From the IMG/VR virus record IMGVR_UViG_3300023199_000021, positions 66,846 through 130,845 of that record: 64,000 nt of DNA. One strand, 5' to 3'. The position numbers and the translations under genes are program-made. How positions within the stretch are numbered: position 1 is the first letter of the stretch; every line of letters begins with the position of its first letter. Positions 1 to 61,477 of the stretch are shown here, in pieces. This DNA comes from a virus. Under the pieces are notes generated by a model. The model saw only the letters and a list, made by a program, of their open reading frames with translations, was not told where the DNA came from and ran no database searches.

Positions 1-672
1 AATGGTACCTGTCCTGCTCCGTGGACACTAGCCGCAGCTACCGGTTCTCCGAACTTTGCATCCAACAACGATGCCCCGGTTGGTTCTGGTGGTGTTAACC
101 GTCGTGAAAACATGATCTTCGCTACAACTAATGGTGAAGCAGGCGATGCTGACTACACTCGTCTTCCCGGTGACATTTTTGGTGTTTCCGAAAGCGGTGT
201 GAAGTCTAGTACCTGTCACGTAGCGTCTATCACTGTTTCTACTGACTTGGCTCGTGAAGACCTTTTCGAGCTAGGTGCTAAAAGTCCTTACGCTAAGACT
301 GTTAACTTCCCTGTAGAAGTTACTTGCGATATTGAAGTAACCTCTATCTCAGGTGATCAAGTTACAGCTATCGACGACTGTGGTGGTGCTGCCGCAGTAT
401 GTTCAACTGCTACCAACTTGAGCGACCGTATCATTCGTATCGCTACCTGTGAAGGAACTCGTATCTATCTTGGTGAGAAGAACAAGCTGGCCTCCGTATC
501 TTACGGTGGTGGTGACGCTGGTGGTGGTAACGTAACAGTAACTTACTCTTACACAACCTTCAACGACTTTACAGTTCTTCACTCAAATGACGATTTCAAT
601 GCAGATGGTCAAACTTGGTGGTCAACCCGTTCTGGATATTTAGGTCCAGCCGGTACTACCCAAGATACCTAA
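1..672 (+). CDS. Major tail tube protein (5'-truncated by window edge)
   Basis: Frame is open from position 1 through the 112..672 ORF. Motifs (SITVSTDLAREDLFELG..PY..VNFPVEV, YGGGDAGGGN) resemble tail tube proteins of large phages; it lies upstream of chaperones and the tape measure and is followed by a terminator. Confidence 0.7.
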   Translation, partial: NGTCPAPWTLAAATGSPNFASNNDAPVGSGGVNRRENMIFATTNGEAGDADYTRLPGDIFGVSESGVKSSTCHVASITVSTDLAREDLFELGAKSPYAKTVNFPVEVTCDIEVTSISGDQVTAIDDCGGAAAVCSTATNLSDRIIRIATCEGTRIYLGEKNKLASVSYGGGDAGGGNVTVTYSYTTFNDFTVLHSNDDFNADGQTWWSTRSGYLGPAGTTQDT

Positions 673-33353: not shown

Positions 33354-35239
33354 ATATCTTCTCCAGCTACAATTTTAACAGTGTCCATAACCTTGTCCAA
33401 AGAACGAGTAGCCAAGCAGTCTAGCTTAAGTAGACCTGCCGATTCGCAACTTGGACCTTCGTATCCAGCACGATACTCTTTACCTTTGGAATCCAAAATC
33501 ATTGGACAAGAAGCACTAATTGGCTTGTTTGAGATAACCACACCCGCAGCGTGAGTACCCATAATAATCTTGGTATGCTCTAGACGAATGGCTTGTTCAA
33601 ATACTTTCGCCATCTTTCCTTCCAGCTTACCATCGTCTCCGATATGACACCACGCTTTTAGCTTACCGGGAGTATTTTCCAAGGCCCATAGGATACTAGA
33701 AGAATAACCGTATTCGTTTTCGATATCCTTTAATTCGTCAGAAACACTAGCTGGTTCAGGCAGAACCTTAGTAATAGCCTTTTGTTCGTCAAACGAAATA
33801 CTACCACGAGCTGCCATAGTTCTGGTCAAAGCTGCCTTACCCTTCAATGTTTGGAAGGTAATGATTTGGGCAACATTTTCTTCACCATACTTTTGACGAA
33901 TGTATTCAATTGTTTCTTCTCTAGCTGCTTTTGGAATATCAAAGTCAATATCAGGCCAAGAGATTTTCCCCGGTGCGTTACGGCCAGCATTGTAGAATCG
34001 CTCAAAGATCAAGTGATACGGGATAGGATCAACCTGAGTGATACCCAAAAGGTTAGAAACCATACAACCAGCAGCGGAACCACGACCAACTCCGGTGATG
34101 TACCCTTTATTACGCACGAAATTAAGAATATCATCCACAATAAGGAAGTAACTAGATAGGCCGATAGAAGTAAAGACCTCCAACTCATGATTGGTTCTTT
34201 CTCCGTACTGATTAAATTTAGGGTGATTTGAATATACTATATGAGCCATACGCTCTTTCCAGCCCTCCGCACATAGCTTGCGAAGGTATTGCCCTGGGGT
34301 TAGACCGTCTGGACATTTGAATTCGGGGGGTTGTGGTGACTGCAAAATACTATAGTCATCACACATATCTCTGATGACATTAGTGTTAGACAGTTCTTCC
34401 TCTGAATGGAACCCCAACATATCCTCATAAGATGGAATGTGGTAGTTATCTGATCGGAAAAACGTAATCAAGGAACGATTAGCGGTACCAGCTTTTAATT
34501 CTCGCTGTACTTGTCCTATGGTCTTTTTAAAGTAGGTGCAAAGCAGAACTCTTTGATCCTCAGCATCTTCCCTTTCGCAATAGTGAGCGTCCGGTGTAGC
34601 AACACATGGGATGCCTGTAGTTTTTGAAATTTGTCTAAGAGCATTGCCTACTTGACCCGCAAGCTTGTTTATCTTGGAATCAATTAATTGAATTTCAATA
34701 AAGAAGTTGCCCTTACCAAAGATACCTTCCAGGGTCTTAGCCATGTACATGCCCCTCTTCATCCAATCAGGGGCTAGCTTTTCTCCATCGGTAATAGCGT
34801 GAGCTAGAATAGAACCTAAGTGTCCGCTGAAAGATACCAAGTTGCCTTGACTAGCCGCCATAGCTAGAAGGTCGATATCGACTCTTGGCTTATGATAGAA
34901 GTGTTCTTTTTTGTTGGCAGCAGATACTAGTCCCAACAAGTCACGCCAACCCTGTAGGTTCTTGGCGATTACAACTTGGTGGCTTAGCTTTCTGTTTTCT
35001 TTATTTCTTTCGGTTGCTGGTGCTGTCATGCAGACATACATTTCACAACCTAGCAATGGCTTTAGCCCAGCGTCATGCATTTCTTGAGAAAAGTCAATGG
35101 CTCCCGACACGGAACCATGATCGGTTAGGGCACACGCATTCGCTCCAATCTTTTTTGTACGCTCTGCAATATCTTCACACTTGCTTAAACCGTCAAGCAA
35201 GCTGTACTCAGAGTGAACATGTAGTGGCGTGTATGACAT
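33347..35239 (-). CDS. dnaE: DNA polymerase III alpha, N-terminal part (PHP + palm)
   Basis: LHVHSEYSLLDG, TDHG, GRGSAAG, FERF, PDIDFD, HAAGVVI, LLKLD; start MSYTP. Confidence 0.92.
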   Translation of the reverse strand: MSYTPLHVHSEYSLLDGLSKCEDIAERTKKIGANACALTDHGSVSGAIDFSQEMHDAGLKPLLGCEMYVCMTAPATERNKENRKLSHQVVIAKNLQGWRDLLGLVSAANKKEHFYHKPRVDIDLLAMAASQGNLVSFSGHLGSILAHAITDGEKLAPDWMKRGMYMAKTLEGIFGKGNFFIEIQLIDSKINKLAGQVGNALRQISKTTGIPCVATPDAHYCEREDAEDQRVLLCTYFKKTIGQVQRELKAGTANRSLITFFRSDNYHIPSYEDMLGFHSEEELSNTNVIRDMCDDYSILQSPQPPEFKCPDGLTPGQYLRKLCAEGWKERMAHIVYSNHPKFNQYGERTNHELEVFTSIGLSSYFLIVDDILNFVRNKGYITGVGRGSAAGCMVSNLLGITQVDPIPYHLIFERFYNAGRNAPGKISWPDIDFDIPKAAREETIEYIRQKYGEENVAQIITFQTLKGKAALTRTMAARGSISFDEQKAITKVLPEPASVSDELKDIENEYGYSSSILWALENTPGKLKAWCHIGDDGKLEGKMAKVFEQAIRLEHTKIIMGTHAAGVVISNKPISASCPMILDSKGKEYRAGYEGPSCESAGLLKLDCLATRSLDKVMDTVKIVAGEDIC

Positions 35240-40719: not shown

Positions 40720-41201
40720 TTCATCACCTTAGCCATTTGTAGATTCTTAAAGAGGTCACTCATATTCTTAACTGACGTAGCTAAGAATGTAAGACGGTCC
40801 ACTCTTTGTTGTGCATATGATTTTAGTTTCAATAGACCTTTGGCAAAGTCATCATCCTTGATAGCTTGGTGAAACTGGCTATCCCAAGACCCAACGTATT
40901 GTTGTTCCTTGCCAGAGATTAGTTTCTTCAAACGGTTTTCAGCCCATTTTACTCTGGCTGTTTCTCTATTCAAACATCGTTGTAAATGAAACGAGAATCC
41001 CCCTAGTGCCAACGCTATCTCGGCACACTGTTCGACACCTAGCTTCTCCATTTGCTCACGGCTCATAGAAAGATATTGCTTTACGTCATCGTCAACAACA
41101 TCTTCAATGAATCCCGGCAAACCAATTTTCTTCTCGTATTCATCTAAAGCGGAATCGAGAATCTGCATTTGCCCTAGCGGTGTTCTATCCTGTTCTTCCA
41201 T
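40716..41201 (-). CDS. Helical protein, possibly UvsY-like recombination mediator
   Basis: Coiled-coil, located near recA and dnaB. Confidence 0.4.
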   Translation of the reverse strand: MEEQDRTPLGQMQILDSALDEYEKKIGLPGFIEDVVDDDVKQYLSMSREQMEKLGVEQCAEIALALGGFSFHLQRCLNRETARVKWAENRLKKLISGKEQQYVGSWDSQFHQAIKDDDFAKGLLKLKSYAQQRVDRLTFLATSVKNMSDLFKNLQMAKVMK

Positions 41202-41584
41202 TCTTCTTCCTTCTCATTATATGGCAATTCAATATAGGTAATGTTGTTGAGTTCACACCAATCCTTCTTGTCAATGTCACGCTTCTTCTGTTCTAAAAAG
41301 TCGCGTGCTGAGGAATGGAACAGACTACTAAATTTATAGTGCTGCTCGCCGTGAACTTCAACGCAAAGCTTGATCTGATTAATGTAGAAATCGAGATACT
41401 GAGTTCTTCCCGGCCTACAATTCACTGGAGCTTCTTCAAGGATTTGCATGGTAGGAAATAGCTCGTAAAGGATTCGTCTAGCTTGATTATGAAGCTTTGA
41501 TCTAGACTTGGAATCGTTTCCCGTAACTATTTCCCCACGCAATTTCCATTTACCTATGTTGCCAGCTAAGTCTCTTACTTTCAT
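41174..41584 (-). CDS. Vsr/PD-(D/E)XK-like endonuclease
   Basis: LDFYI..EVHGEQHY..RD..K..WC; ATGA-coupled start MKVRDL. Confidence 0.7.
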   Translation of the reverse strand: MKVRDLAGNIGKWKLRGEIVTGNDSKSRSKLHNQARRILYELFPTMQILEEAPVNCRPGRTQYLDFYINQIKLCVEVHGEQHYKFSSLFHSSARDFLEQKKRDIDKKDWCELNNITYIELPYNEKEEEWKNRIEHR

Positions 41585-42612
41585 GCTGCTAACATTACCT
41601 TGTTTGCATTCAATATTGCGAAGCCTTCGGTATTCCAAACCATACCTTGACCCTTGTAGGGCGTGATATTTCTATGAAACACGGTTGGGTCGGTGATTTC
41701 TGTGTTGATGAAAGAATCTCTCGTTCCCAAATCCAATACTACTCCGAAATCTTTCTCTGGCTCGTACCAAGACAGTTCGGGAGCGTGATTTACCTTGACT
41801 CCAAGCACACACATGGATTTGTCGCAGTTCAGAATGTCCTTTTCGATATGCACTTGCTCAAACATTTTGTAGTAGGTATGAGTAGGAACAAAGATATCGG
41901 TTGCTCTATTTCTGAATGGGCTAGAACTATCTCTACAGTCATTTCTTCGCATAGCAGTTTTACAAATACCGATTGTGCGTTGTACATCGGTAAAGTCTTC
42001 AATGGTAGGACCAGTGTTTTGCTTACTCGCTGCCATCAAAACATCCCATGCACCCTTTGCCATTTTCTTACGCATGGAATGGGCAATCTCTTGGACCCAC
42101 ATGCTTACCCTATCCCACTTGCCAATCATATTACTGAATTCAAAATTAATCCAGTCTCCTTCAAAGTCTGATTGTGGGACAAGAACATAGTCTACACTGT
42201 CATTGTCAATAACAACATTCTTGTTTTCATCAAGAAAAACAATGGGGTTGTTGACGTTTAATGTAGTAAGACCGTTCTTCTCTCGATGGAACGCTAGAAG
42301 GTCAAGCGGAAACTTTGGGATTTCTCCCGGTTGAATCTTTACTTTCTCGTAAATTTTCTGATAAGAAAAACCAAATCTTTCGATATCGGTTTTCATTACC
42401 TTGTGAGCGGCCTGAATGATATCCTCAAACGAAGCTTGTTTGATAATGCTCTCTGCCTTTTCCCTAAGAACAGGTAGTTCTCTCAGGTGAGCATCAAAGC
42501 TATCGTTATCTACTTCACCTAGATGTTGTTTTACTAGATCAAGCGATGGAAGAATAGGTGCTGCGGCAAATATCGCAGCTACGCTTTTTACAAAGTCACG
42601 CCTATCAAGCAT
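41581..42612 (-). CDS. Tat-signal-bearing diverged major capsid protein paralog
   Basis: N-terminus DRRDFV plus hydrophobic stretch. Body motifs PKFPLDLLA, DYVLVP, KKM..G.W..LMAA, KTAMRRN, TDIFV, LDL..RDSFI, EGFAILN.NKV match the large-phage MCP family as recalled. Confidence 0.7.
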   Translation of the reverse strand: MLDRRDFVKSVAAIFAAAPILPSLDLVKQHLGEVDNDSFDAHLRELPVLREKAESIIKQASFEDIIQAAHKVMKTDIERFGFSYQKIYEKVKIQPGEIPKFPLDLLAFHREKNGLTTLNVNNPIVFLDENKNVVIDNDSVDYVLVPQSDFEGDWINFEFSNMIGKWDRVSMWVQEIAHSMRKKMAKGAWDVLMAASKQNTGPTIEDFTDVQRTIGICKTAMRRNDCRDSSSPFRNRATDIFVPTHTYYKMFEQVHIEKDILNCDKSMCVLGVKVNHAPELSWYEPEKDFGVVLDLGTRDSFINTEITDPTVFHRNITPYKGQGMVWNTEGFAILNANKVMLAA

Positions 42613-42697
42613 GATGAATTCCTAAGATAGTATGTTTGTTGTTTAGACAAGAGACACCGACAGCACCCAACACTTTAATAAAATCTCTACGCTGCAT
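42605..42697 (-). CDS. 30-aa Tat-signal-only peptide
   Basis: MQRRDFIKVLGAVGVSCLNNKHTILGIHHA*; overlaps the recA stop and the next start. Confidence 0.55.
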   Translation of the reverse strand: MQRRDFIKVLGAVGVSCLNNKHTILGIHHA

Positions 42698-43688
42698 GTT
42701 CCATTCCTATCATTTCGAATACTTGTTGTCTTAGTTCATTGTAGTATTCAGGATTTTCCTCTAGGTATGTAGCAAAGTTTGCCATACCCTGAACCTTCTC
42801 ACCATTAGGCAAGGTCAACCAAGTTTTTCCTTCAACTACGCCAAAGTCCTTGGCTAGCTCTGCTAGCTCATACTCATTCCAAATACCTCGACCGTATTTG
42901 ATAATGCTAGTCACTTTTTGACCGGGAGGCCCAATGGCTGAGTTTTCTACAATCCAGTGAACCTTCTGTCCAATTTGTGTTTCCCCCTGCTTCAACGCTT
43001 CCTTGTGCGTTGCCCACAACTTTACGTCCTGAGCATACTTCAAAGCGTTACCTGATTTCTCAGTCTTACTTTTACCTGCTCCGAACTTCTGAATGTTAGC
43101 CATCAAGTGTGTAATACCTACGAGGGTTACACGGTTAATAGGTAGAACATTAGCGAATCGCCTAGTGAACTTAGCAAGATAGCGATTCATAGCGGCAACT
43201 TGAGTGTCGGTGATATCACCAACAAGTTCGTCTTCTGCTGCTAGTGCAGAGAAAGAGTCTATCACGCATACAGCGTGTGGTTCATTATGAATGATATTGT
43301 CAAAGATGGCAAGGTATTTTTCACCCGAAAGAATGTTGCCTTTCGTGGAACCAACAACTTTTAATCCTTCGGGTGAATAGTCCAATCCATGAATACCTTC
43401 GAGGTCACGCTTTTTCAATCGTCCTTCGATATTGCCATAATAGATTTTGCGTTTTGCTTCTGATTCGGTCGCCACCTTTTGTGCATTTTTACAAAATTGC
43501 AAAGCTTGTACAGTCTTACCCACTTTTTCTGGTCCTGTCATGATAAACAGACAGCCTTCGGGGACACCGCCCCCCAAGGCTATATCTATTTTAGGGCTCA
43601 CCGAAATTAACGGAGGCGGATTATCGACGATGTAAGACGCTTCAAGTAGCACGTCACCATACTCTTTAATAATGTCTTTTTCTGTCAT
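42687..43688 (-). CDS. recA: RecA/UvsX-like recombinase
   Basis: GGGVP, GPEKVGKT, IDSFSAL, SGNALKY. Confidence 0.88.
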   Translation of the reverse strand: MTEKDIIKEYGDVLLEASYIVDNPPPLISVSPKIDIALGGGVPEGCLFIMTGPEKVGKTVQALQFCKNAQKVATESEAKRKIYYGNIEGRLKKRDLEGIHGLDYSPEGLKVVGSTKGNILSGEKYLAIFDNIIHNEPHAVCVIDSFSALAAEDELVGDITDTQVAAMNRYLAKFTRRFANVLPINRVTLVGITHLMANIQKFGAGKSKTEKSGNALKYAQDVKLWATHKEALKQGETQIGQKVHWIVENSAIGPPGQKVTSIIKYGRGIWNEYELAELAKDFGVVEGKTWLTLPNGEKVQGMANFATYLEENPEYYNELRQQVFEMIGMEHAA

Positions 43689-44857: not shown

Positions 44858-45240
44858 TTACCCTTCCTTTTCTTTTTAGCGTCTTGTTTTGAAATACGAG
44901 GCATATCGCTATTTGTTTTAGCTCGACTCATACCGGATGGTAGTTCTTTTATTCCAGTGTTAGGGTTCTTCTTTGTCTTATAGCTACGTAGCTTTGCATC
45001 ACGTTCGTCACGACTTAGTTTGGCAGTTTGTTTGTCTGCATATTCACCCAGAGTCGTTGCTTCGTGAAGGCCCTTGACATAGTTTGGAACAATACGGTCT
45101 GCACCGTAGTCCCTCAATACCCTCTTACTTTTGCATTCGGGGCATTTTACCTTTTTGATTTTTTCGTCGTATTCTGCTATTGAGAATACTGAGGTAAAAG
45201 CTACCTCACACTTTTCACATTCAAAACTATATTCCGGCAT
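44854..45240 (-). CDS. FmdB-family Zn-ribbon protein
   Basis: MPEYSFECEKC...CPECKS. Confidence 0.75.
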   Translation of the reverse strand: MPEYSFECEKCEVAFTSVFSIAEYDEKIKKVKCPECKSKRVLRDYGADRIVPNYVKGLHEATTLGEYADKQTAKLSRDERDAKLRSYKTKKNPNTGIKELPSGMSRAKTNSDMPRISKQDAKKKRKGK

Positions 45241-45478
45241 TACGAATTGTCCCCCATGCGTCGTCGTCCATTTTCTTTTTGAATCCTTCTTCTATAATTT
45301 TCATGGCACGTCCTACAACGTCCCAGCTTCCGATTTCAGATTCAGTTTTAACAGGGAAATTCACATACTTATGATAAGATGTTTTGCGACCCAATTCGCA
45401 AATTTCTTCCCTGTCTAGGTTACAAGATACACCAATGTTTTGAAAGTGGGGTGAATTATTTCCCAAACCACCATGCAT
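45227..45478 (-). CDS. Hypothetical protein, possibly frameshifted at upstream A7 run
   Basis: Frame is open upstream (KERDPRIFYPEKQIEM) as far as a TAA inside the A7 run. DREEI.ELG.K..Y.K.VNFPV resembles part of the tail tube sequence. Confidence 0.45.
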   Translation of the reverse strand: MHGGLGNNSPHFQNIGVSCNLDREEICELGRKTSYHKYVNFPVKTESEIGSWDVVGRAMKIIEEGFKKKMDDDAWGTIRNAGI

Positions 45479-45560
45479 TTCTATCTGCTTTTCAGGATAG
45501 AAGATACGTGGGTCACGCTCCTTTTTTTAGGAACGTCTGTAATTGTTTTTTTTGCACAAG

Positions 45561-45595
45561 AAAAAGGCAACGCCCTCGCAAGTGGGAGTGCTGCC
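45561..45595 (-). terminator. Intrinsic terminator
   Basis: GGCAGCACTCCC-ACTTGCGA-GGGCGTTGCC followed by TTTTT. Confidence 0.65.
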
Positions 45596-45613
45596 AATAG
45601 TTTGTTGGAATCT

Positions 45614-45841
45614 CTACGTTTCATTTTCATCCTCTAAGAAGTGCCCTTGAACGTCCAAACACTTTTTACAGTAAACCTTCGCTGCTCGAATTTCTACCGC
45701 ATCTGGAGAAAGTTTCAGGCCGTACCCTAAATAGTCTTTGCGGTATCGACCTGCCACTTCCACGTCAGGTATTATTACTGTTACTTTATCTCCATGTTCG
45801 AGCATACGATGGCAATTGTCGCACCGTTTAAGCTCGTACAT
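45614..45841 (-). CDS. Small Zn-binding protein
   Basis: CDNC...YCKKC. Confidence 0.6.
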   Translation of the reverse strand: MYELKRCDNCHRMLEHGDKVTVIIPDVEVAGRYRKDYLGYGLKLSPDAVEIRAAKVYCKKCLDVQGHFLEDENET

Positions 45842-48441: not shown

Positions 48442-48624
48442 TTACTTGGTTTCACGGACAGTGTCACCAACAATCCATGCTACCACGATGGTAGCGACAG
48501 CTACAACTTGCTCAGTATCTAACTTGATACCAAACATCTCTGAACTAACCACAGCGGCAAGACCGGCAGCGGCAACCCAGAAACGACGAGAAGTTAATAG
48601 TGATTTCAATTTGTTGTTTTCCAT
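48442..48624 (-). CDS. Holin-like two-TM protein
   Basis: SRRFW motif plus two hydrophobic helices, 60 aa. Confidence 0.6.
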   Translation of the reverse strand: MENNKLKSLLTSRRFWVAAAGLAAVVSSEMFGIKLDTEQVVAVATIVVAWIVGDTVRETK

Positions 48625-58336: not shown

Positions 58337-58767
58337 TCTTTCATTCTTCTGAAATTAAAAACTTGTGATGCGGGTGACGCTACCCTGCCACCAGATTGTA
58401 CTTTTTGGTCTAGAACGAAACTATGTAGCTTTTGCATTTGGTTTACAAGCTGTTCGTTGAATGCTTTCTTTTCTGGATCGTCACCGGCCCACATTTTCAG
58501 CGATTCATAGATAAAGTTCTCCAACTCTCCCTGAGAGATATGAAAGATTAAGTAGGAAAGGATGTTAACCGAATCTTCTGACAGGTCATCTATTTCGGAT
58601 AGAACCGTAAAGTTCCCCGTACCTGAATTGTACTCAATTAGAATCTTACCAGCAGCATCGCTCTCGATTTCTTCTGGTATAATCTTTTCTTTTTGAAGAC
58701 TGTTTAGTAAGTATTGTAACAAACTCATGATCCCGTTATATATTGATTGAAACTTGGGCAAATCCAT
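58333..58767 (-). CDS. Hypothetical protein
   Basis: ORF with P..VF C-terminus; true start may be MSLLQY. Confidence 0.5.
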   Translation of the reverse strand: MDLPKFQSIYNGIMSLLQYLLNSLQKEKIIPEEIESDAAGKILIEYNSGTGNFTVLSEIDDLSEDSVNILSYLIFHISQGELENFIYESLKMWAGDDPEKKAFNEQLVNQMQKLHSFVLDQKVQSGGRVASPASQVFNFRRMKE

Positions 58768-59265
58768 CGCTATCCTTTGAACTTAGAAAAGTGCCGATAC
58801 GATTGCCTTGATAGTTGTTGACTACTCCATTGTGGGAATAGGCTGTTTCACCAGCTTTAGCTTCTCCATCAACAGTAATGGTTACGATTCCATTTCTTAG
58901 AACCTGAACCTTGCCTCCTTGCATAACCTGATCGCTGCAACTGATATGCTGTTTTGTTAAGTCGATATTACATGCTCAAAGTCTAGGTCAGGCACCCATA
59001 CAATCTCAAGTGCCCCACCATCGCCCTGACTATTCAATATATCCGCTAGGCTTCCACTTGTGTTACTAGGAAGCATACCGGTAACTGGAGAAGTTAATAG
59101 TTGTAACTTAGACGGAGGATCAACAGGTTGATCTAAGTCAATAAACTGGCTCGACTTAACTGCTTCCTCAGCGGCTCCTACTCTTTTCTTGATAGGTACG
59201 GTTGCCGCAGCCGCAGCACCGAAACCTAGCATCTTTAGAAATCCTCTACGTTCTATTTTAGTCAT
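58736..59265 (-). pseudogene. Tat-signal-bearing capsid decoration-like paralog, split by a -1 frameshift at ~58968
   Basis: ERRGFLK signal ORF (58957..59265) continues in the -1 frame as NIDLTKQHI...QGGKVQVLRNG...IGTFLSSKDSDGFAQVSINI. Confidence 0.6.
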
Positions 59266-60367
59266 CTGTTGTACGGTCGAAATGAGTCCTATTTACCCGT
59301 ACTGCCTTAGCACACTTGGACAAATCCTTTAGACAGGTCGCTCCAACGTAAGCACAACAACTTACTAACCCGCCCTTTATTTTCTGAACTACTTCATGGG
59401 CTGGACCCTTGTAGTCTATATATTTTACCCTTCCTTCGCTGGTTTTGTACGAAGCCATCCCTCCATTATGCTTATCTTGGGCTGTTTTTGATGACATTCC
59501 GTAGAATTTTAGTGCTTTTTTTCTAGTTCCCGGTCCAATTTGAATGCCATCAATCAATGTTCTTAACCTTTCTGTATGATACTCCCATTCGCCCTCACAC
59601 TCGTCACAACCAGCAAACATACCACCGAGCATCACGAAGTCGGCACCGCCTGCAAACGCTTTATTCACATCACACGGTTGTCTACAGCCACCGTCCCCAC
59701 AGACAAGCCCTAGTCGTTTCTCAGCACTCTTAAGACCGTGGGCCACTTGACTACACTCCATGATCGCAGAGAGTTGTGGATAGCCCACACCGGCCATCAG
59801 GCGAGTCGTACAGGCCGAGCCGGGACCGATGCCAATCTTGACGATATCAACACCACCATGTAGTATTAGTTCCTGTGTCATTTCAGGAGTGCATACGTTG
59901 CCTGCCATAATGATAGGGTAAGTACCTAATTTTTTACGAATAGAAGCACAGTATTCTACAAACCTTTCAGTATAACCATTGGCAATATCAATGCACACGT
60001 TTGGTACTTTACAAATTGCTTCGCATAGATCGAATAGTTTTTTGGAGTCTCCTCTTTTCATGCCGATACTAACCCAAGCGTTCTGTAGGTTTAATGGAAA
60101 TTTAAACGCTTGAATTAGGTGTTCTAGATCGTAATGCTTATGTAAACATGTTACCATGTTGTGTCGTTGTAAAGCATTAGCCATTTCTATAGTGCCTGTA
60201 GTATCCATGTTAGCTGCTATAATAGGCACACCATTCCACTCTCTATTAGAATGAAAGAAGGTGTACTTACGCGACAAGTTTACATCTGATCGTGATGCAT
60301 TAGGACTACGTTGTGGCACCAAAAGGATATCCTCAAAGTCCAACTTGGTATCATTGCTTATTTGCAT
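59258..60367 (-). CDS. guaC: GMP reductase
   Basis: [46 protein letters not shown]. Confidence 0.92.
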
Positions 60368-60981
60368 ACCCAGTCTCTTTCCTCAAAGTATTTGTGATAG
60401 TCATACGATCTTAGTATGATACCTATCTTGTTTCCCATGTAGGGGATAGGTTGAAACAGATCGTTTTCCTCAGCCTCTTTGTAAAGCCTTTTAACTTCGG
60501 AAGATTTCATGATCCCCCAACGAATAGCAAAGGCGTTCTTTTCGATCAGTTTGATATGGCGATCCAAATCATAGTTCGCAGGTTTCTTAAGCCTAGCACG
60601 ACCAGTATTGTAGATAAAAAGAATATCTGCGTCTTCTTTGATATAGGCTTTAAGATTATTCCTTTTAAGAGTAAACTTACCAGCAGTAGGAACCCATTTG
60701 ATTTCTAGCGGTATGTCGTTTACTTTATAGTCAGCACCAGCCGTATTGCCACTGGCTATGAACTCACCATCATTATCGCACCCGTTGTCTTCCCAAGTAA
60801 GGTTCGGGTCATCAACTTTTGCGATATCTAACCACTTGTGAAAGAAATACTTCTCCAGCATTGTGCCGAACTTGATATCTTTCTTGAAGCGGTCAACTGT
60901 ACGGTTGTCAAATCTATTCACCACTACTACCAAACCCTTCTTCACCACGATCACTCTCGGCCAACTCGTCAACTTCAACAA
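60358..60981 (-). CDS. PD-(D/E)XK-like nuclease-fold protein
   Basis: ADY....LEIK; true start probably GTG near 60924. Confidence 0.5.
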   Translation of the reverse strand: MLKLTSWPRVIVVKKGLVVVVNRFDNRTVDRFKKDIKFGTMLEKYFFHKWLDIAKVDDPNLTWEDNGCDNDGEFIASGNTAGADYKVNDIPLEIKWVPTAGKFTLKRNNLKAYIKEDADILFIYNTGRARLKKPANYDLDRHIKLIEKNAFAIRWGIMKSSEVKRLYKEAEENDLFQPIPYMGNKIGIILRSYDYHKYFEERDWVCK

Positions 60982-61477
60982 GTTGCACGTCAGGGATCGG
61001 TTGGAATAAAATTTGGGCGACCCTATCGCCCTTCTTGATTAAAACGTCTCCGTCTCCGTCTTCGTCGTAAAACAATGGCAAAGGCACACTATACAAGCAT
61101 ACCATGATTTCTCCACGATAGCCGGAATCAACCACGCCAGCTAAAACATCAAGTCCTTTTTTTACAGACAAACCAGATCGGGGCCAGATCAAACCAACCC
61201 ATTCATCTGGAATTTGTAATGCGATACCAGTTTTGATTATTGCTCTGCTCCCACCGCGAATCATTACGTCTTCAATAGCATATAAGTCCCACCCCGCATC
61301 AGAAAGATTTGTGCGAGTGGGAATGATTGCTTCTGGATGGAGAGACTTAACTCTTACTTTAGACGTACCTATATTGGGCATAGCCTCAATGTCTTTAATA
61401 CGTTCTAGAAGTTGTCTTACTTCTATAATCCTTTGTAGTTGGTTTTGTCTAGCTGTGTGATCTTGATGCTTACTCAA
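60914..61477 (-). CDS. dut: dUTPase
   Basis: AGWDL, PRSG, GVVDSGYRGE, GDRVAQ, RGEEGFGSSG. Confidence 0.95.
   Translation of the reverse strand: MSKHQDHTARQNQLQRIIEVRQLLERIKDIEAMPNIGTSKVRVKSLHPEAIIPTRTNLSDAGWDLYAIEDVMIRGGSRAIIKTGIALQIPDEWVGLIWPRSGLSVKKGLDVLAGVVDSGYRGEIMVCLYSVPLPLFYDEDGDGDVLIKKGDRVAQILFQPIPDVQLVEVDELAESDRGEEGFGSSGE

Follow-up and report, generated by a model that had tools for sequence, protein, structure and literature searches.

Tailed-phage capsid proteins are known as builders of shells, in virions and, by descent, in encapsulins and gene-transfer agents. The question considered here is what a second copy of such a protein may be doing among the replication genes of a large uncultured phage, and why it begins with a twin-arginine (RR) leader of the type that belongs to the twin-arginine translocation (Tat) pathway. 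The phage is IMG/VR virus record IMGVR_UViG_3300023199_000021, a complete record of 130,845 bp with direct terminal repeats. The stretch analysed, called the window below, is the second half of this record (positions 66,846 to 130,845; 64,000 nucleotides), and coordinates are those of the window unless the genome or a contig is named. The target of the analysis is the open reading frame (ORF) at 41581-42612 on the minus strand, which is intact, encodes 343 residues and opens with MLDRRDFVKSVAAIFAAAPILPSL. The target may be a Tat-targeted, non-virion capsid paralog that acts in the cell envelope; we give this reading a probability of about one half.

Homology and Fold of the Target

Every ORF of the genome with 40 residues or more, 785 in all, was compared with the target. 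One clear paralog was found, at genome positions 60272-61273 (L001:10272-11273), and it is the canonical major capsid protein (MCP) of the phage, with 333 residues, located in the head module outside the window. The two proteins are 23% identical over 338 residues (blastp E 7e-13, phmmer E 8e-13). The canonical MCP matches phrog_2522 'major head protein' with an E of 2.8e-5 and the major head protein of Bacillus phage G with an E of 1e-5. It is preceded, in this order, by a 1100-residue ORF that bears an intein, a 720-residue ORF of portal size, a 524-residue acidic coiled-coil ORF and a 156-residue cement protein (PF22758). The 1100-residue ORF (L001:2096-5398) was considered as the large terminase; Pfam gave only intein domains for it (LAGLIDADG and Hint), so this name is tentative.

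The initial annotation, made from the letters of the window alone, had called the target an MCP paralog because of a colinear series of motif blocks, which it compared with motifs attributed to MCPs of the same phage group. All of these blocks are present in the target and are aligned with the canonical MCP. The motifs so attributed are really carried by the canonical MCP of this genome, as SEFPLDFLAPG, GDYVMVP, KKMNDDGW, VTMRRN, NDSFVMP and HGFAVLDNRRV. The target is thus not the only MCP of the genome. Within the first 120 codons of the target, in-frame ATG, GTG or TTG triplets occur only at codons 1 and 73, so that the start cannot fall just past the RR motif. The sequence AGGA lies 7 nt 5' of codon 1, and the plus-strand frame over the same positions contains stops throughout.

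The fold agrees with the sequence comparison. The target was modeled with AlphaFold2 from an alignment of 24 rows; the model has a mean pLDDT of 76.9 and a pTM of 0.80, and contains the long spine helix at residues 166-196. In the PDB, the leading Foldseek matches of this model are without exception HK97-type capsids or encapsulins (probability 1.00, E about 1e-6 to 4e-5), among them NF5, DT57C, the Thermotoga encapsulin, the Pyrococcus virus-like particle and HK97. The coat protein of a capsid-forming phage-inducible chromosomal island (PICI; 9gyi) is also among the fold matches. The structural neighbors of the ESM Atlas model are phage MCP clusters, with TM values of 0.60-0.71. Neither of the findings that would have overturned the initial annotation, a fold unlike HK97 or a lone MCP with its true start beyond the RR motif, was obtained. 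The target itself gave no match in searches of Pfam, PHROGs or PDB sequences, nor with tblastn against 50,697 phage records, and a word-indexed search of 5.8 billion proteins returned only the target itself and the protein P0002. The target is a true, diverged full-length paralog of the phage's own HK97-fold MCP. By fold and homology it belongs to the HK97-fold capsid family, yet it is not 'the' capsid protein.

The Twin-Arginine Leader

The N-terminus of the target reads MLDRRDFVK and continues with a 15-residue hydrophobic stretch rich in Ala, Ile, Leu and Pro. The leader occupies residues 1-24 (42541-42612, minus strand) and consists of an n-region with the twin arginine, DRRDFVK, which agrees with the Tat consensus (S/T)RRxFLK, and an h-region, SVAAIFAAAPILPSL. 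When the first 45 residues were compared with NCBIfam and Pfam at E values up to 10, Tat-signal models (TIGR01409 and PF10518) were the only families matched.

Relatives of the target were sought with a profile among 1.84 billion representative proteins, and 23 proteins were returned. One of these, P0010 (2545 residues), was rejected as a family member, being a leucine-rich-repeat protein with a spurious match in the leader region. The twin arginine followed by a hydrophobic run is found in eight of the 18 full-length members (the target, P0002, P0003, P0004, P0006, P0007, P0019 and P0017), and the fragment P0011 is led in the same way, which makes nine leader-bearing members in all. P0012 has the arginine pair but lacks the hydrophobic run and was not counted. 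The leader strings of the nine members are RRDFVK, RRNFLK, RRNFLA, RRDFLK, RRNFLR and RRQAIQ; the arginine pair is kept in all nine, and Phe at the second position after it in all but one. Plausible cleavage sites are seen by eye in P0003, P0007, P0019 and P0017, and the AxA-type ends of relatives include AVA before N, SFA before E and SQA before K. The family is seldom met in databases: the clusters to which the RR proteins belong have 1-3 members, all metagenomic; seven are unnamed and two are named 'hypothetical protein'.

It is important to compare the leader with the rest of the chain. The target and P0002 share 27 of their first 30 residues, while their overall identity is 61-64%; by this comparison the leader appears as the best-conserved part of the two proteins, which argues that it matters. 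In the alignment, the start of the N-arm of the canonical MCP (NPEMEAILRQSG) stands opposite LPSLDLVKQHLGE of the target. The leader is thus an extension of about 20 residues, placed ahead of a capsid protein that is itself complete. A maximum-likelihood tree was calculated from the 18 full-length rows, with the six fragments shorter than 300 residues left out. A clade with support of 100/100 unites the five closest RR proteins, P0007 and P0019 are paired, and P0017 branches next. The ten leaderless MCPs, including that of this genome, form one clade (95/93), and all eight RR proteins lie outside it, so that a single gain or loss of the leader suffices to explain its distribution.

Apart from the leader, the target differs from the canonical MCP, a distant relative of gp27 of Bacillus phage G, in a longer N-arm region, in a shorter stretch near alignment columns 445-490 and in its location in the replication module, while the two are colinear over the 338 aligned residues and have the same fold and motif blocks. 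The shorter stretch is common to the RR clade, which lacks about 25 residues present there in canonical MCPs. The target has four Cys residues and the canonical MCP none; the median is four in the eight RR rows and one in nine canonical full-length rows, P0008 being omitted from this count for its apparently frameshifted C-terminus. The positions of the Cys residues are not conserved, and the difference may be taken as suggestive at best.

Gene Neighborhood and Related Contigs

The initial annotation had placed the target next to recA and described it as intact, coupled to its neighbors and maintained, and the analysis agrees on each point. The upstream neighbor (42687-43688, minus strand) is a RecA/UvsX-type recombinase (PF00154, E 1.8e-22; phrog_97, UvsX-like, E 2.4e-37). 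The ATG of the target overlaps the TGA of a 30-residue ORF lying between the two, and its own TGA overlaps the ATG of the downstream gene in the sequence ATGA. This downstream gene (41174-41584, minus strand; 136 residues from the overlapping ATG) is endonuclease-like, with matches to phrog_559, phrog_9084 and phrog_7140 at E values of 2.9e-17 to 2.3e-11, obtained on a longer reading of 154 residues; no Pfam family was matched. Two small ORFs, a DnaB-type helicase and a Toprim primase follow. The target is therefore not encoded in the head module, as the canonical member of its family is, but amid uvsX, helicase and primase genes, 48 kb away from that module. Scans of promoter-like sites (27 found, 20.7 +/- 3.5 expected) and terminator-like sites (13 found, 9.2 +/- 3.2 expected) gave no usable signal.

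The same arrangement is found in related contigs. A scan of viral contigs with a 6-row alignment (A4) gave three loci, L002, L003 and L004, while the scan with a 2-sequence alignment (A2) gave no relative; scans of genome and metagenome contigs returned the same contigs again (L005 is L003, L006 is L002 and L007 is L004). L002, its near-copy L003 and L004 share the order UvsX, RR-capsid paralog of 340-379 residues, endonuclease-like gene, two small genes, helicase and primase, and the endonuclease-like gene occupies the same position in L002 (10367-10774) and L004. The RR-capsid paralogs of the three loci are intact, with 27-64% identity. L002 and L003 are 99.8% identical, and their RR-capsid genes differ only by an in-frame indel of 8 codons. 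No loci for P0019, P0007 and P0017 were found in viral contigs. In L004 the helicase (L004:6729-9242) has 837 residues, compared with 484-494 here and in L002, and an ORF at L004:11589-13604 has 671 residues, compared with 359 in L002; both insertions look intein-like by eye.

This conservation bears on the alternative that the target is a functionless duplicate in a decaying genome. Such decay would be in keeping with the other RR ORFs of this genome, described below, which are truncated or split. However, intact ORFs of the target's kind are kept across that range of identity in at least five divergent lineages, the leader is their best-conserved part, and the structure model is confident. 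We consider a functionless duplicate extremely improbable.

A Phage-Encoded TatA

In the whole genome, PF02416 has one match (50.4 bits, E 1.9e-14), at genome positions 34341-34475. It lies in an ORF of 84 residues (genome 34254-34508; L008:1414-1668, minus strand), which is outside the window and 75 kb from the target gene. The protein passes the cut-off of TIGR01411 tatA/E (54.5 compared with 53.9 bits) and matches solved TatA chains with an E of 2.5e-8. Just upstream of it there is an ORF of 299 residues (L008:1997-2896), the start of which resembles a lipoprotein signal by eye.

Searching the phage records with the TatA by tblastn gave no match. TatA was also not found in the records behind L002, L003, L004 and L009, which are only 10-57% complete and hence uninformative on this point. 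The single viral contig with a TatA relative is G005 (L012-L014; 48,270 bp, 69% G+C, 60% complete), the TatA of which has 46% identity. It is unrelated to this phage and contains no member of the capsid family of the target. A 249-residue ORF with a SRRDILRGAGIFGALAAV-type leader lies at about 16.3 kb in G005, close to its TatA, and another ORF of this contig, of 98 residues, starts with VNRRGFFAAVAAGLAG.

The presence of TatA allows a reading in which the host Tat system is not used but attacked. The leader would bring the oligomerizing body of the target, which is difficult to transport, to the translocon, and together with the phage TatA it would block or open the translocon, and so shut down host Tat export or aid depolarization for the timing of lysis; delivery of the cargo would not be the aim. 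It is established that capsid proteins oligomerize and that the size of Tat cargo is limited; The pore of the Tat system is formed by TatA, and it is this subunit that the phage has, without TatC. However, the target is found among replication genes and not lysis genes, and the small RR fragments of the relatives would be poor plugs. This mode of action seems to us very unlikely.

Other RR-Leader Reading Frames

The RR motif was sought in all six frames of the 130,845-bp genome as RRxF[ILVMA]K. There are exactly three matches, all in the window and on the minus strand, each of them a few residues from the start of an ORF and followed by a hydrophobic run. This regularity indicates that the motif is not there by chance. 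One of the matches is a stand-alone leader, the 30-residue ORF directly upstream of the target (42605-42697, minus strand), which consists of MQRRDFIK and a hydrophobic run (MQRRDFIKVLGAVGVSCL) and has its ATG within the last codons of uvsX. It scores 16.0 bits with TIGR01409 and 18.8 bits with PF10518, both under the cut-off. Its codons are unlike those of the target leader, so that it does not stem from a recent DNA duplication.

The best Tat-type leader of the genome belongs to a 102-residue ORF at 58957-59265 (minus strand), which reaches 21.2 bits with TIGR01409, over the cut-off of 16.7, and matches TIGR02811 with an E of 5.3e-5. This ORF has no homolog besides itself in the search of 5.8 billion proteins, and it does not resemble the cement protein in the N-terminal half of the latter. 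A second ORF, at 58736-58972 (minus strand), starts in another frame inside the 3' end of the 102-residue ORF. By tblastn this second ORF resembles the C-terminal part of the canonical cement protein (40% identity over 85 residues, residues 71-155, E 1.3e-11). Together the two ORFs look like an RR-tagged cement paralog that has been split by a frameshift. Logan contigs of the sequencing runs X1 (depth 25, possibly the source of the virus record itself) and X2 show no difference from the window between 41400 and 59400, and thus no indel at the split. The contigs of runs X3 and X4 cover only small parts of the window, and no RNA dataset was among the runs found to hold the sequence. The X4 contig, from a sediment metagenome, follows the cement-like ORF over 58587-58933 with four differences and continues with unlike sequence exactly upstream of the ATG; since it diverges upstream of this ATG at 58933, it represents a relative without the 102-residue RR ORF at that place. 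In another virus contig the leader of a 121-residue ORF (L009:2208-2573), QDRRGFLKMLGFGSAALVPGC, shows 87% identity with the leader of the 102-residue ORF over 15 residues; it ends in a lipobox-like VPGC.

A looser scan found an RR-leader remnant of 49 residues (MKMKRRDSNKLLAALPLARALP) at 45481-45630 (minus strand). It is situated where the relatives have an RR ORF of 198-215 residues (L002:4275-4922 and L004:748-1344), the leaders being alike by eye. Beside it, an 83-residue ORF without RR leader (45227-45478, minus strand) ends in a copy of the MCP spine helix, with 56% identity by blastp to residues 125-156 of the canonical MCP (32 residues, E 3.8e-11). In all, the genome contains three strict RR ORFs and one remnant, and two of these are tied to capsid or cement paralogs. 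A loose RR scan also gave an ORF of 60 residues at 48445-48624 (minus strand; MENNKLKSLLTSRRFWVAAAGLAAVVSS), which has less the look of a Tat leader than of a small membrane protein, perhaps of the holin type.

In the relatives, extra RR-leader ORFs occur a few kb upstream of the capsid paralog, where the window has remnants only. Short RR ORFs at L002:5094-6612 and L004:1348-1599 contain segments like the canonical MCP, 40-69% identical to that of this genome. The segments are shuffled, with a C-terminal strand motif before the N-arm and the spine helix before the E-loop region; one of the pieces reads 'SPEALEDIRNWGVDE'. These pieces may be functional or may be recombination debris. The longer RR ORFs at the position of the remnant have a segment of 45-55 residues in common with the N-terminus of a 384-residue protein of the tail module (E 4e-11 and 8e-6). 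This tail-module protein (window 1-672 together with genome 66363-66845) has no Pfam or PHROG family and is not assignable as sheath, tube or major tail protein.

These fragments raise the question whether the leader serves export at all. The target could be a cytoplasmic modulator of assembly, in which the RR leader would be a non-export handle, either a tether to the membrane or TatBC on the side of the cytoplasm or a recognition tag, and the body would bind capsid assembly intermediates of the phage itself, of a competitor or of a satellite. It would then resemble the coat-like or scaffold-competing proteins by which satellites redirect capsid assembly. The body has kept the whole HK97 fold, a capsid-forming PICI coat is among its structural matches, the target leader scores below threshold and has no clear cleavage site, and capsid pieces of the relatives that are unable to fold alone bear the same type of leader. 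However, the leader fits the Tat consensus position by position (RR, Phe, Leu or Val, Lys, and an h-region rich in Ala and Gly) in nine members, the ends of several relatives appear by eye to be of the classical AxA type, and the TatA of the phage would be left unexplained by a purely cytoplasmic handle. We regard a modulator of this kind as unlikely.

The location and the relatives' fragments also have to be weighed for a specialized virion protein, either a vertex (penton) or a minor shell protein like gp24 of T4, the hydrophobic N-terminus of which would keep the head at the membrane in the early stage of its assembly and then be cut by the prohead protease. T4 has, flanked by uvsX and the helicase gene 41, a gene for head assembly (gene 40), in the relative position that the target occupies here. 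The target is moreover a full-length MCP paralog, diverged about as much as gp23 and gp24 of T4 are from each other, and a cement-protein paralog exists as well. However, it is encoded among replication genes and not in the head module, and the RR clade lacks about 25 residues of the canonical chain. The same leader stands on the cement paralog and on capsid and tail fragments of the relatives that are unfit as shell subunits. This reading would also leave both the Tat consensus and the presence of a phage TatA to coincidence. A role in the virion is in our judgment quite unlikely.

Proposed Function

The reading of the target as a Tat-targeted protein of the cell envelope rests on several observations taken together: the paralogy with its HK97 fold, the conserved leader, the conserved placement, the phage TatA and the sister RR ORFs on cement, capsid and tail sequence. 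We suggest that an old full-length copy of the MCP gene may have moved from the head module into the string of recombination and replication genes and been fitted with a Tat-type leader. The protein would fold in the cytoplasm and its leader would be recognized by the host TatBC receptor, while the additional TatA of the phage would raise the translocation capacity. The capsid-like body would then end beyond the cytoplasmic membrane, where it might be released or remain tethered by an uncleaved leader; tethering is considered because the target leader has no clear signal-peptidase site.

The points that weigh against this reading concern the leader, the machinery and the other tagged proteins. 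The target leader stays below the curated cut-offs, with 16.4 compared with 16.7 bits for TIGR01409 and 12.9 compared with 22.7 bits for PF10518, and by eye a clear cleavage site of the AxA type is missing from it, Pro being the residue after AAA. Five of the ten leader peptides tested, several of them from relatives, gave no TIGR01409 match at all. No TatC was found in the phage genome, and a Tat system of the host is an assumption; there are weak hints to the host in one related contig binned in a metagenome-assembled genome of Dehalococcoidia and in the Atlas neighbors of TatA, which are mostly Planctomycetota. The short RR-tagged capsid pieces are too small for a whole HK97 fold and fit poorly with the preference of Tat for folded cargo. 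Finally, two of the four RR ORFs of this genome are decayed or split, so that the set is not uniformly maintained.

The N-terminal Tat signal proposed in the initial annotation therefore stands in part. The consensus n-region, the h-region, the exclusive match to Tat models and the phage TatA speak for it; the scores under the cut-offs and the lack of a clear cleavage site do not. The Tat-signal reading of the leader is supported at sequence level, and the target may be described as Tat-signal-like, not as a proven Tat substrate.

If the target is considered with the RR cement paralog, the RR remnants and the RR capsid and tail pieces of the relatives, the whole set suggests a phage programme for bringing copies of abundant virion proteins to the envelope, probably at the time of the replication genes and not late. 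In its widest form the proposal would be that some large uncultured phages have their own programme of Tat export, made up of TatA and RR-tagged paralogs or pieces of their most abundant virion proteins (capsid, cement and a tail-module protein). During the replication phase the full-length HK97-fold copy, perhaps joined by the cement-like protein, would build capsomer-like assemblies in the envelope and so shield the cell. This wider proposal is tentative, and we are inclined to doubt it in this full form. As to the purpose, our guess is that the envelope of the infected cell would be protected, by superinfection exclusion or as a decoy, rather than that virions would be built. This guess is favored because the genes lie with replication genes and because the tagged sequences go back to proteins that are abundant in the shell and the tail.

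Comparison with Known Systems

A literature search found in the texts covered no description of Tat-tagged capsid copies or of a phage tatA. The portions consulted of a 2026 review of the Tat pathway (PMC13673990) make no mention of phage, virus, viral or capsid cargo. If the proposed reading is true, Tat would carry a kind of cargo that goes unmentioned in those portions of the review, and capsid proteins would have a function outside the virion, and viruses a class of Tat cargo, for which the phage and Tat literature searched, as far as it was covered, offers no description. It would also mean that phages re-use their own structural folds as envelope-located effectors and manipulate the export pathway for folded proteins. 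For annotation, the practical consequence would be to stop naming every MCP-like phage ORF 'major capsid protein'.

The vertex protein gp24 of T4 is the classic example of a phage that has a diverged second copy of its MCP. The target is like gp24 in being a full-length MCP paralog kept beside the main MCP. However, gp24 is a virion protein, is not known to have an export-type leader, and is encoded beside gp23 in the late head operon, while the gene of the target is not adjacent to that of the MCP.

Another shell protein with an N-terminal signal is the encapsulin cEnc of the anammox bacterium Kuenenia stuttgartiensis, an HK97-fold protein with a signal described as 'reminiscent of twin-arginine peptides' (bioRxiv 10.1101/085266). 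As far as the consulted part of this preprint goes, the likeness lies in an HK97-fold shell protein with an export-type signal at its N-terminus, and encapsulins are among the best fold matches of the target. In the same part of the text, cEnc is a cellular gene product with a cargo enzyme and the quoted signal has no arginine pair, whereas the target is phage-encoded, belongs as a paralog to the close family of a genuine capsid protein, and lies beside no gene recognized as one for cargo. An encapsulin is defined by a cellular shell gene with adjacent cargo; here the context is that of a phage, and targeting peptides were not searched for.

In comparison with Tat signal peptides as modeled by TIGR01409 and PF10518, the target has the RRxF(L/V)K n-region and a mildly hydrophobic h-region rich in Ala and Gly. 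It differs in its score, 0.3 bits under the TIGR01409 cut-off, in the lack of a clear AxA site and in its passenger, which is a virus shell protein and not a cofactor enzyme. Uncleaved Tat signals that act as anchors exist in Rieske-type proteins. Dedicated Tat components encoded beside their cargo are known from TatAd-TatCd with PhoD in Bacillus subtilis. The phage resembles that system in having its own TatA together with a cargo candidate that bears an RR leader, but here TatA occurs without TatC, 75 kb from the gene of the cargo, and the carrier is a phage.

The satellite proteins Ccm of PICIs and CpmB of SaPIs (Staphylococcus aureus pathogenicity islands) redirect capsids, are coat-like or coat-binding, and are not known to have an export-type leader. 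The target is similar to them in being coat-like without being the main shell subunit. They are encoded by satellites, however, while the carrier of the target is the very phage whose coat it resembles.

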